DNA of 64,000 nucleotides from Escherichia coli. GTDB taxonomy: Bacteria; Pseudomonadota; Gammaproteobacteria; Enterobacterales; Enterobacteriaceae. Made by a program: the position numbers and the translations under genes. The stretch lies in NCBI RefSeq assembly GCF_045037415.1, contig NZ_CP173438.1; one strand, given 5' to 3'. The notes beneath the pieces were generated by a model that ran no database searches, had not been told where the DNA came from, and saw nothing but the letters and a program-made list of their open reading frames with translations. Position 1 is the first letter of the stretch. Every line of letters starts with the position of its first letter. Below, one piece after another: positions 44,856-46,489 of the stretch.

Positions 44856-45212
44856 AAAGTCCTGTCCAGAAAGAAGTCGGCCTCGCAAAAATGAATAAAC
44901 CCAGTTTCTCTTGCGCAACAGGTGGAGAAGTCGAATACGCAGTATGTAAAAAATGAGGCAACAGATTCACTGGGGAGGTCGCGAGGAGGCGCAATTCTAC
45001 AAAATTGCGCATTTCACTACTAGTCTGGAGTCAGCCCGGATATGAGCTGCAACTATTGCAAATAAAGAAATTAAGCTGGAAGGCATCACGCAATGAGGAA
45101 GATTGCCGGGTGCTGACGGCAAAAAGCAATCGTAAAATCAGCGGCAAGCCGGAAGGGTTCCGGTGAGGCGCAATGTTGCGGGGGCTTTATCCCTGGTGGC
45201 ATTGGTTGCTGG

Positions 45213-45285
45213 AGAGAGAAAACCCCCGCACGTTGCAGGTATGCACCTGACAACATCACGGGGGCCATTCTTGCATCTAGACCAT
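45213..45285 (-). ncRNA. rdl: Putative Rdl antisense RNA, copy 1 (cis-antisense to the ldr 5' leader)
   Basis: Minus-strand imperfect hairpin CCCCCG...CGGGGG (plus-strand 45223..45265) followed by UUUUCUCUCU; position about 50-120 nt upstream of the ldr ATG. The 5' end is a guess. Confidence 0.4.
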
Positions 45286-45330
45286 TCAAGAATAGCCGCG
45301 AAACGTTGTCATTACAACACAGGCGGCTAT

Positions 45331-45438
45331 ATGACGCTCGCAGAGCTGGGCATGGCCTTCTGGCATGATTTAGCGGCTCCGGTCATTGCTGGCATTCTTG
45401 CCAGTATGATCGTGAACTGGCTGAACAAGCGGAAGTAA
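45331..45438 (+). CDS. ldr: Ldr-family type I toxin peptide, 35 aa (MTLAELGMAFWHDLAAPVIAGILASMIVNWLNKRK)
   Basis: Recognised Ldr peptide: hydrophobic core with WHDLAAP motif and basic KRK tail; C-terminal 35 codons of the 91-aa ORF in the track. Confidence 0.85.
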   Translation: MTLAELGMAFWHDLAAPVIAGILASMIVNWLNKRK

Positions 45439-45695
45439 CGTGTCATGCGGGCGTCAGGCTGCCGTAATGGCAATTTGCGCCCGGACCAGGCCGCAGAGGT
45501 GAAACTCTGCGGCCTTTTTCGTAAGAAAAATGCAACGGTTGCAAGCGGATAATATTCTGCGGAATGCGCAGCACAGAGTGAAGAAGTGATAGATTCCGGA
45601 ACAGAAAAACAGTCGTAGAATCAGCGTCAAGCCGGAAGGGTTCCGGTGAGGCGCAATGTTGCGGGGGCTTAATCCCTGGTGGCATTGGTTGCTGG

Positions 45696-45768
45696 AGAGA
45701 GAAAACCCCCGCACGTTGCAGGTATGCACCTGACAACATCACGGGGGCTAATCTTGAACCTGAACAAC
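45696..45768 (-). ncRNA. rdl: Putative Rdl antisense RNA, copy 2
   Basis: Equivalent position, 483 bp from copy 1; sequence differs from copy 1 in its 5' portion. Confidence 0.4.
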
Positions 45769-45813
45769 TCAAGAATAGCCGCGAAACGTTGTCATTACAA
45801 CACAGGCGGCTAT

Positions 45814-45921
45814 ATGACGCTCGCAGAGCTGGGCATGGCCTTCTGGCATGATTTAGCGGCTCCGGTCATTGCTGGCATTCTTGCCAGTATGATCGTGAGC
45901 TGGCTGAACAAGCGGAAGTAA
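45814..45921 (+). CDS. ldr: Ldr-family toxin peptide copy 2, 35 aa (N29S variant: ...MIVSWLNKRK)
   Basis: Same as copy 1 with one substitution. Confidence 0.85.
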   Translation: MTLAELGMAFWHDLAAPVIAGILASMIVSWLNKRK

Positions 45922-46178
45922 CGTGTCATGCGGGCGTCAGGCTGCCGTAATGGCAATTTGCGCCCGGACCAGGCCGCAGAGGTGAAACTCTGCGGCCTTT
46001 TTCGTAAGAAAAATGCAACGGTTGCAAGCGGATAATATTCTGCGGAATGCGCAGCACAGAGTGAAGAAGTGACGGATTCCGGAGCAGAAAAACAGTCGTA
46101 GAATCAGCGGCAAGCCGGAAAGGTTCCGGTGAGGCGCAATGTTGCGGGGGCTTTATCCCTGGTGGCATTGGTTGCTGG

Positions 46179-46251
46179 AGAGAGAAAACCCCCGTACGTT
46201 GCAGGTATGCACCTGACAACATCACGGGGGCTAATCTTGAACCTTAACAAC
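46179..46251 (-). ncRNA. rdl: Putative Rdl antisense RNA, copy 3
   Basis: Equivalent position, 966 bp from copy 1. Confidence 0.4.
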
Positions 46252-46296
46252 TCAAGAATAGCCGCGAAACGTTGTCATTACAACACAGGCGGCTAT

Positions 46297-46404
46297 ATGA
46301 CGCTCGCAGAGCTGGGCATGGCCTTCTGGCATGATTTAGCGGCTCCGGTCATTGCTGGCATTCTTGCCAGTATGATCGTGAACTGGCTGAACAAGCGGAA
46401 GTAA
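46297..46404 (+). CDS. ldr: Ldr-family toxin peptide copy 3, 35 aa (identical to copy 1)
   Basis: Same as copy 1. Confidence 0.85.
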   Translation: MTLAELGMAFWHDLAAPVIAGILASMIVNWLNKRK

Positions 46405-46489
46405 CGTGTCATGCGGGCGTCAGGCTGCCGTAATGGCAATTTGCGCCCGGACCAGGCCGCAGGGGGAAACTCTGCGGCCTTTTTCGTTC

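Follow-up and report, generated by a model that had tools for sequence, protein, structure and literature searches.

The window, a 64,000-nt stretch of Escherichia coli DNA (contig NZ_CP173438.1), carries three tandem LDR units between yhjV and bcsG (Table 1). Tandem Repeats Finder identified one array at 45122-46487, with a period of 483 bp, 2.8 copies, 97% matches, no indels and a score of 2578. A repeat search of the window found three copies in register, at spacings of 483 and 483. Repetition of this extent is far beyond chance. The first-pass annotation had described three head-to-tail 483-bp units, and both searches bear them out. Its array start at 45095 does not hold, since clear repeat homology begins only at about 45122. 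The last unit was said to end 2 bp before the bcsG stop codon, in agreement with the array end at 46487 and a bcsG open reading frame that runs from 46490.

Each unit encodes a hydrophobic peptide toxin. The start codons lie exactly where they had been placed, at 45331, 45814 and 46297, and each opens an intact 35-aa open reading frame. The peptides read MTLAELGMAFWHDLAAPVIAGILASMIV(N/S)WLNKRK, with the N29S substitution in unit 2. They match Pfam PF13940 (Ldr_toxin) at E 1e-26 over the full length of the model (residues 1-35 to model positions 1-35), and 34 of their 35 residues are identical to LdrD (PDB 5LBJ). NCBIfam returned no family at E ≤ 0.01 for either of the two Ldr peptides, and membership in the Ldr family was settled by Pfam and PDB.

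The opposite strand encodes the antisense partners. The Rfam rdlD model (RF01813) gave three full-length (1-66) minus-strand matches; they score 82.9-88.3 bits, where the gathering score is 50. Each Rdl lies at -114 to -49 relative to its ldr ATG, opposite the 5' UTR, and leaves the RBS and the start codon uncovered. The RNAs are predicted to fold into a free 5' tail, a long stem-loop and a U-run, with minimum free energies of -31.7 to -32.3 kcal/mol and z-scores of -4.5 to -6.3; 0 of 200 shuffles were as stable. The terminator scan reported minus-strand terminator-like sites for the Rdl of units 1 and 2. Rfam and folding thus identify as Rdl the hairpin-plus-U-run noticed earlier upstream of each ldr gene, and together with Pfam and PDB they confirm three Ldr toxin units with Rdl antisense partners, a type I toxin-antitoxin arrangement.

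Table 1. Features of the yhjV-bcsG interval (positions in the window)
Feature	Position	Strand	Basis or remark
yhjV	43584..44855	-	Left-hand neighbour, divergent from the array
LDR-D-type unit 1 (483 bp)	45122..45604	+	Tandem Repeats Finder and repeat search; 97% to K-12 LDR-D over 399 nt; holds ldr promoter region, 5' UTR, rdl-1, ldr-1, terminator and inter-unit spacer
25-aa upstream ORF MLRGLYPWWHWLLERENPRTLQVCT	45173..45250	+	-158 to -81 of the ldr-1 ATG; candidate ldrX
rdl-1, antisense antitoxin RNA, 66 nt	45217..45282	-	Rfam RF01813, 82.9 bits; fold -32.3 kcal/mol, z -4.5
In-frame ATG at -90	45241, 45724, 46207	+	Other candidate ldrX start
Hypervariable single-stranded 5' tail of Rdl-1, 17 nt	45266..45282	-	Diversity and pair comparison
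Putative rdl-1 promoter	45289..45317	-	-35 TTGTAA, 17-nt spacer, -10 TATTCT, 6 nt ahead of the Rdl 5' end
Putative rdl-2 and rdl-3 promoters		-	Equivalents of the rdl-1 promoter at +483 and +966 downstream
ldr-1, 35-aa toxin MTLAELGMAFWHDLAAPVIAGILASMIVNWLNKRK	45331..45438	+	PGAP WP_001295224.1 in an identical genome
Intrinsic terminator of ldr-1	45488..45520	+	11-bp stem, 8 GC pairs, then TTTTT
LDR-D-type unit 2 (483 bp)	45605..46087	+	96% to K-12 LDR-D; 98% to unit 3
25-aa upstream ORF repeats	45656-45733, 46139-46216	+	Candidate ldrX in units 2 and 3
rdl-2, antisense antitoxin RNA	45700..45765	-	Rfam 88.3 bits; fold z -6.3
Rdl-2 and Rdl-3 tail equivalents	45749-45765, 46232-46248	-	As Rdl-1 tail
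ldr-2, 35-aa toxin with N29S	45814..45921	+	ORF; PGAP WP_000170745.1 in an identical genome
Intrinsic terminator of ldr-2	45971..46003	+	Terminator scan
LDR-D-type unit 3	46088..46487	+	Stops at its own terminator, without the inter-unit spacer
rdl-3, antisense antitoxin RNA	46183..46248	-	Rfam 86.3 bits; fold z -5.5
ldr-3, 35-aa toxin, same sequence as ldr-1	46297..46404	+	ORF; PGAP
Intrinsic terminator of ldr-3	46454..46485	+	Stem end 46480, then TTTTT; about 4 nt from the bcsG stop codon
bcsG	46490..48169	-	Right-hand neighbour, convergent with the array

Expression signals and predicted operation of the units

In a sigma-70 consensus scan of 44900-46700, no promoter reached 9 of 12 matches. 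The putative rdl promoter was missed because it matches the consensus at only 8 of 12 positions. For ldr, unit 1 offers TAAAAT as a candidate -10 element and units 2 and 3 offer TAGAAT, with poor -35 elements. The concept of a leader open reading frame, ldrX, comes from the K-12 literature (PMC4147584, PMC8167048), where the search for its coordinates returned only review-level statements without them. Two starts in the array are candidates, the 25-aa upstream open reading frame and the in-frame ATG at -90. Both are conserved, and the 25-aa frame is found in K-12 LDR-D, -B and -C.

The mechanism is drawn from published work on K-12 ldrD/rdlD (PMC4147584, PMC8167048, PMC8309996) and is applied here by near-identity. 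Each unit is self-contained: its promoter region and long 5' UTR are accompanied by an antisense 66-nt Rdl gene, the 35-aa toxin and a strong intrinsic terminator. Rdl would pair with the ldr 5' UTR and prevent translation of ldr, by a proposed route in which it blocks ldrX, to which ldr translation would be coupled. Even for K-12, this coupling is an unconfirmed model (PMC4147584, PMC8309996). The hok/sok/mok system likewise has a long 5' UTR, an antisense RNA placed off the toxin RBS and a leader coupling for which mok would be the counterpart of ldrX, although its toxin family is unrelated and the coupling of ldrX is only proposed. If made, Ldr would insert into the inner membrane and cause rapid growth arrest; nucleoid condensation would be the effect expected from LdrD, and a drop in ATP is the one attributed to LdrA. 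In K-12, the toxicity of LdrD and its counteraction by RdlD have been shown (PMC4147584, PMC8309996). The identity of 34 of 35 residues suggests that the same holds in this strain, and the intact sequence features suggest that all three units are transcribed and functional.

The terminator of ldr-3 was also considered as the intrinsic terminator of the convergent bcsG, as the first-pass annotation had proposed. Only about 4 nt separate the hairpin from the bcsG stop codon, folding shows it on the bcsG-sense strand as well, and the tight ldr-bcsG juxtaposition is kept in Salmonella, Citrobacter and Kluyvera. On the minus strand, however, the stem is followed by UGGUCCGG (UGGUCCGGGCG in the bcsG-sense reading) and not by a U-tract, the terminator scan reported no minus-strand site at this hairpin, and in folding the bcsG-sense 3' region is no more stable than its shuffles (z -0.95). 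K-12 and other genera share this geometry. A shared, bidirectional terminator is therefore unlikely, and the proposal does not stand in that form. The hairpin could still function in bcsG termination without a U-tract.

Locus identity and copy number in E. coli

The comparison with K-12 bears out the first-pass account of that strain, which has one ldrD copy between yhjV and bcsG and the triple ldrA/B/C elsewhere, between kdsA and chaA. K-12 ldrD/rdlD has the same locus, orientation and unit architecture as the array, with 96-97% nucleotide identity, 34 of 35 peptide residues and full-length Rdl. It differs in having one unit instead of three, in residue 3 of the peptide (F3 in K-12, L3 here), in lacking the N29S of unit 2, and in the 5' tail of RdlD, from which the tails here differ as they do from each other. 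The location between yhjV and bcsG and the closer identity to LDR-D both place the array at the LDR-D locus.

The K-12 ldrA/B/C-rdlA/B/C array is also a tandem triple Ldr/Rdl array of the same module design. Both loci being triple arrays of one family, the ldrABC array could be imagined to have moved or been converted into the ldrD locus; this is as good as ruled out. Identity to LDR-D is 96-97% for all three units, compared with only 76-79% to LDR-A/B/C, and this D-type identity excludes the gene conversion between LDR loci that had been suggested. Moreover, the period is 483 bp here as opposed to 535 bp in ldrABC, and the array peptides are LdrD-like (…VIAGILASMIVNWLNKRK), unlike LdrA/B/C (…ILAGIITAAIVSWWRNRK), which form a different subgroup, the LdrB-group of Fozo et al. 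2010.

The number of units at the locus was surveyed in 5,426 complete E. coli genomes. A query containing the array is unfit for counting units, since genomes with one, two and three units all cover at least 95% of it; flank-only queries of graded length were used instead, the longest gap that could be bridged depending on the length of the query. At most one unit was found in 2,093 genomes, at most two in 2,626, at most three in 4,442, at most four in 5,273 and at most six in 5,321. By class, about 2,093 genomes have one unit, 533 two, 1,816 (33%) three, 831 four and 48 five or six. At least two units are thus present in approximately 3,200 of the 5,426 genomes (about 61%) and the single unit is the minority state (39%), percentages that are not population frequencies because the database is redundant, with many K-12, O157 and clinical clones. 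Three units were seen in 13 of 39 genomes of a separate even-step sample and in 11 of 59 (19%) of another. The latter value is below the 33% of the threshold method, a gap that may reflect sampling noise or ranking structure, and the threshold counts are taken as the better estimate.

Three units are the usual state among the closest relatives of the window that were sampled. GN05652 and others are 100% identical over a 3-kb query spanning the array, and PGAP annotates three Ldr toxins in them. The three-unit form of the locus is already known and already annotated. With a third of the genomes carrying exactly three units and PGAP annotating them routinely, the triple array is not the noteworthy expansion that it was first taken for; it had been foreseen that a count across E. 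coli genomes might show simply the normal locus, and this is essentially what it shows. LDR sequences were reportedly compared between strains by Kawano et al. 2002 (DNA Res 9:1). The literature searched, of which that study was not part, yielded no census of units specific to yhjV-bcsG. Lineage-specific Ldr duplications have already been described (PMC2887945).

An assembly artefact, in the form of a mis-expanded repeat, had been raised as a possibility. Tandem repeats of 483 bp are hard for short-read assemblers, and an E. albertii draft contig does end inside an ldr unit. Nevertheless, the array is matched at 100% identity in independent complete genomes, GN05652 and OZ038590 among them; several further genomes agree in array length and have flanks identical to those here, and three units are present in around 1,800 complete genomes. 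Diagnostic sites also distinguish the units, which rules out duplicated reads. Mis-assembly is thus extremely improbable.

A recent, lineage-specific triplication of one ancestral ldrD unit in this genome appears very unlikely, if slightly less so than mis-assembly. In its favour, the locus holds one unit in K-12 and in representatives of Salmonella, Citrobacter and E. whittamii, and the identity between units 2 and 3 reaches 98%. Unit 1, in contrast, is about 4% different from both, units equivalent in position to the first and last ones occur in unrelated strains that have two to five units, multiple units are widespread in the census, and Escherichia sp. E1V33 has two units at the locus. 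A neighbour-joining tree of the units, built from mosaic units without support values and used only for this grouping, clusters together the last units of 2-, 3-, 4- and 5-unit alleles. Furthermore, the documented recent event in the window's own lineage is a contraction from three units to one. Strain 1442, whose flanks are 100% identical over 1,200 nt, has a single recombinant unit that corresponds to unit 1 up to about +160 and to unit 3 at its 3' end. Judged from such sequences, the direction of copy-number change is clear only for strain 1442. The K-12 single unit was also considered as a demonstrable contraction product and set aside; both array ends are necessarily present in any lone unit, so the boundary sequences of the K-12 unit say nothing on this point.

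Very probably, then, the interval is the chromosomal LDR-D locus in a common three-unit allele, with three complete D-type ldr/rdl modules that would operate as in K-12, and with a copy-number polymorphism generated by unequal recombination. Unequal homologous recombination between the 483-bp units would account for a species-wide range of one to about six units, and the single unit of K-12 and the three of the window would be two frequent alleles.

Divergence of the Rdl 5' tails

The 5' tail of Rdl is a hotspot of divergence, with a nucleotide diversity (pi) of 0.20 against 0.02-0.05 elsewhere, and it is identical in 0 of 39 pairs of co-resident units. Duplex energies were computed for these tails. 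As an observation, the hotspot may be new. That none of these pairs shares a tail suggests unit-specific antitoxin recognition. A parallel exists in the Ibs/Sib modules of E. coli, which are likewise multi-copy, partly tandem cis-antisense toxin-antitoxin modules. Their target-recognition domains lie in hypervariable regions, and Sib RNAs tell cognate from non-cognate mRNAs (PMC2943612). The Rdl tail resembles these regions, although discrimination has been shown experimentally for Sib whereas the Rdl tail is known here from its sequence. The toxin and the RNA are unrelated, and Sib spans the whole ibs mRNA while Rdl is limited to a part of the 5' UTR. By analogy, the tandem units might be partly orthogonal toxin-antitoxin modules that are kept different, with the Rdl tail and its complementary 5' UTR site as the recognition determinant and each Rdl preferring its own ldr mRNA. 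This proposal is tentative, and we hold it with less than even confidence. If it were true, the window would contain two specificity groups, unit 1 alone and units 2 and 3 together.

The array itself is of small importance, being a correctly recognised allele of a well-known toxin-antitoxin locus. The copy number at the locus has wider consequences: K-12 serves poorly as a reference for the copy number of type I toxin-antitoxin loci, and short-read assemblies will under-count such arrays. The divergence of the Rdl tails provides a cheap, testable hypothesis on target recognition by Rdl, the mechanism of which is still called unknown in reviews.

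The D-type array between yhjV and bcsG

Three tandem LDR units, each consisting of an ldr toxin gene and the gene for its Rdl antisense RNA, lie between yhjV and bcsG, as the first-pass annotation had proposed. Tandem Repeats Finder reports a single array with a period of 483, 2.8 copies, 97% matches and zero indels, and a repeat search of the window recovers three in-register copies at 483-bp spacing. The coordinates first proposed hold except for the array start, since clear repeat homology begins at about 45122 and not at 45095. The ldr ORFs encode MTLAELGMAFWHDLAAPVIAGILASMIV(N/S)WLNKRK, a peptide that matches Pfam Ldr_toxin over its full length (PF13940, E 1e-26) and agrees with LdrD (solved structure PDB 5LBJ) at 34 of 35 residues. 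On the strand opposite each ldr, 49-114 nt upstream of the ATG, the Rfam rdlD model (RF01813) is matched over its whole length at 82.9-88.3 bits (gathering threshold 50). The fold of every match comprises a free 5' tail, a long stem-loop and a U-run (z-scores -4.5 to -6.3). A strong intrinsic terminator with an 11-bp stem, 8 GC pairs and a following TTTTT is found 3' of each ldr ORF. Because ORFs, Rdl genes and terminators are intact throughout, all three units are probably functional.

Compared over the 399 nt from -209 to +190 relative to the ATG, all three units share 96-97% identity with K-12 LDR-D and only 76-79% with LDR-A, -B and -C, the K-12 ldrABC array with a period of 535 bp. This makes each of them a D-type ldr/rdl module of the LDR-D locus. 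The same comparison refutes the earlier suggestion of gene conversion between LDR loci, and indicates that nothing was imported or converted into this array from ldrABC.

Coordinates of features in the window
Feature	Position	Strand	Description
LDR array	45122-46487		period 483
ldr-1, -2, -3 (ATG)	45331, 45814, 46297	+	108 nt each; ORF reading
Rdl tails	45266-45282, 45749-45765, 46232-46248	-	17 nt each; single-stranded 5' end of Rdl
25-aa upstream ORFs (MLRGLYPWWHWLLERENPRTL…)	45173-45250, 45656-45733, 46139-46216	+	-158 to -81; ORF reading
yhjV		-	flanking gene, left of array
bcsG	46490-48169	-	flanking gene, right of array
hokA/sokA locus	23391-25136		apparently split by IS150
Rfam sok-like match	23391-23544
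IS150 transposase	23514-24883
hokA CDS	about 24984-25136
Site of HipA-type module in other strains	about 43555-43583		module absent here
yiaM-yiaK interval	about 945-2003	-	two truncated pseudogenes in GN05652
eptB	35078-36802	+	ORF open

In K-12, overproduced LdrD is toxic and is counteracted by RdlD, and Rdl overlaps the long ldr 5' UTR without covering the RBS. LdrD, an alpha-helical membrane peptide, rapidly arrests growth and condenses the nucleoid, and LdrA causes a drop in ATP (PMC4147584, PMC8309996). On the model of hok/mok/sok, it has been proposed, though not confirmed, that ldr translation is coupled to a leader ORF, ldrX, which is blocked by Rdl (PMC4147584, PMC8167048). A 25-aa upstream ORF is common to D-type units and to K-12 LDR-B and -C despite DNA that is only about 77% identical; its LDR-A counterpart forms part of a fused ORF of 42 aa. 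This ORF may or may not be ldrX; part of it lies over the Rdl 3' stem, and its conservation may therefore reflect constraint on the RNA. The other candidate is a conserved in-frame ATG at -90. Each Rdl 5' end is preceded, at a distance of 6 nt, by a candidate rdl promoter (TTGTAA, 17 nt, TATTCT) that overlaps the region where ldr starts. Only 8 of its 12 positions agree with the consensus, and the promoter consensus scan did not pick it up.

The geometry of a terminator shared between ldr-3 and the convergent bcsG, another early proposal, is as described, but a role in bcsG termination is unsupported. On the bcsG-sense strand the hairpin is followed by UGGUCCGGGCG instead of a U-tract, the terminator scan reported no minus-strand terminator at this hairpin, and the strand folds no better there than shuffled sequence (z -0.95). 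The hairpin could still have some part in forming the bcsG 3' end. The juxtaposition of ldr and bcsG also occurs in K-12 and in other genera, and is thus not a property of the triple array.

Unit number in E. coli and related genera

Of 5,426 complete E. coli genomes, 5,425 gave a match to a 3-kb query spanning the array. [quoted passage not shown] An assembly artefact is a very unlikely source of the three units. Units were counted with flank-only queries from which the array had been removed. Pieces were joined only if they lay no more than half the query length plus 500 bases apart, and query length therefore fixes the largest array bridged. The flanks lie about 429 bp apart when one unit is present and 1,394 bp apart when there are three.

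LDR-D unit number among 5,426 complete E. coli genomes (the database is redundant, so percentages are database frequencies, not population frequencies)
Units	Gap bridged (bp)	Cumulative genomes	Genomes in class
1 or fewer	up to 700	2,093	one unit, 2,093 (39%)
2 or fewer	up to 1,100	2,626	two units, 533 (10%)
3 or fewer	up to 1,700	4,442	three units, about 1,816 (33%)
4 or fewer	up to 2,200	5,273	four units, about 831 (15%)
6 or fewer	up to 3,100	5,321	five or six units, about 48 (1%)
Outside classes			about 105; locus disrupted or otherwise not countable

Individual spans in an even-step sample fall into discrete classes 483 bp apart, including one five-unit genome, and example loci with 1, 2, 4 and 5 annotated Ldr genes agree with the size classes. 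Three units are the usual state in the closest relatives of the window (flanks at least 99% identical; even-step sample). Redundancy in the database leaves the conclusion robust: three units are a normal and frequent allele, and the single unit of K-12 is a minority state. The notable expansion first suspected does not survive this count. The locus is a known type I toxin-antitoxin locus, and its allele here is ordinary and has been annotated before.

Unit number has also changed within the window's own lineage. Across 1,200 nt of flanking sequence, strain 1442 (NZ_CP184048) and the window are 100% identical, yet the strain has one unit. At diagnostic sites this unit follows window unit 1 between -209 and about +160 and unit 3 at its 3' end. 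Such a pattern is the signature of a recent contraction from three units to one by unequal recombination, in which units 1 and 3 crossed over and two units were lost. In a unit tree, which has no support values and is built from mosaic units, the last units of two-, three-, four- and five-unit alleles cluster together across strains. Window unit 2, 98% identical to unit 3, sits in this cluster, and unit 1 groups with the strain 1442 unit and more loosely with K-12 D. This grouping argues against a recent triplication in the window genome.

Scanning one genome per species with a degenerate pattern for the FWHDLAAP motif found an ldr gene adjoining the bcsG 3' end in many genera; most of these assemblies are drafts, so single-unit counts are lower bounds. 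One unit was found in E. whittamii, Salmonella enterica subsp. arizonae and diarizonae, several Citrobacter, Pseudocitrobacter and Kluyvera, and two in Escherichia sp. E1V33. E. albertii has at least one; its draft contig stops within the ldr unit, as expected of a repeat array broken or collapsed in short-read assembly. Kluyvera sichuanensis carries three tandem units beside the bcsG stop codon (6743-7820 of the retrieved region), apparently an independent expansion. The placement of ldr beside bcsG is conserved across Enterobacteriaceae and is therefore ancient. Tandem expansion at this site is recurrent, consistent with the 'lineage-specific duplications and losses' of LdrD- and LdrB-groups described by Fozo et al. 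2010 (PMC2887945).

Neighbouring loci

Some strains carry a three-gene HipA-type module between dppF and yhjV, beside the Ldr array. It encodes an HTH protein, a HipA N-terminal domain protein and a HipA-family toxin (NZ_CP116085, 1294-2920 of the retrieved region), and two genomes with the module are exactly one 483-bp Ldr unit apart. Elsewhere in the window, IS150 lies between a sok-like match and the hokA CDS and appears to split hokA/sokA, an arrangement also present in K-12. In the PGAP annotation of GN05652, the two truncated pseudogenes between yiaM and yiaK are a partial DUF4862 protein and a partial YhcH/YjgK/YiaL protein, indicating a rearrangement in the yiaL region. The eptB ORF is annotated as frameshifted in GN05652, and the 1-bp coordinate offset resolves somewhere in 34787-36894.

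Divergence of the Rdl 5' tail

Sequence variation among D-type units (37 units, 13 alleles) is concentrated in the 17-nt Rdl tail, where nucleotide diversity (pi) is 0.20 versus 0.02-0.05 in every other segment. The top-ranked 17-nt diversity windows all overlap the tail, and none of 5,000 permutations reaches the observed maximum. On a neutral reading, the tail may simply be the part of a densely packed unit under least constraint. Among ten non-redundant multi-unit arrays, the tail 17-mer is shared by 0 of 39 co-resident pairs of units, against a median of 17 of 39 for other 17-nt windows; zero sharing occurs only in windows that overlap the tail. When tails are shuffled among units, all-distinct arrays arise with P about 0.001, an optimistic value given that units are shared between arrays by descent. 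No co-resident units in any of the 11 multi-unit arrays analysed have the same tail, even where toxin peptides are identical, and in several arrays all units encode identical Ldr peptides and all tails differ.

Cognate tail-target duplexes in the window are predicted at -24 to -28 kcal/mol, and non-cognate duplexes at -9 to -10 kcal/mol for unit 1 with unit 2 or 3 and at -20 kcal/mol for unit 2 with unit 3. In the Sib/Ibs system, recognition domains in hypervariable regions discriminate cognate targets, and the hypervariable Rdl tail parallels these domains (PMC2943612). The literature searched, with the 2002 Kawano papers outside its scope, contained no equivalent recognition statement for Rdl. 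The divergence of the tails suggests unit-specific recognition between Rdl and ldr, as in Sib/Ibs, and this tail-specificity hypothesis would be a small follow-up worth testing.
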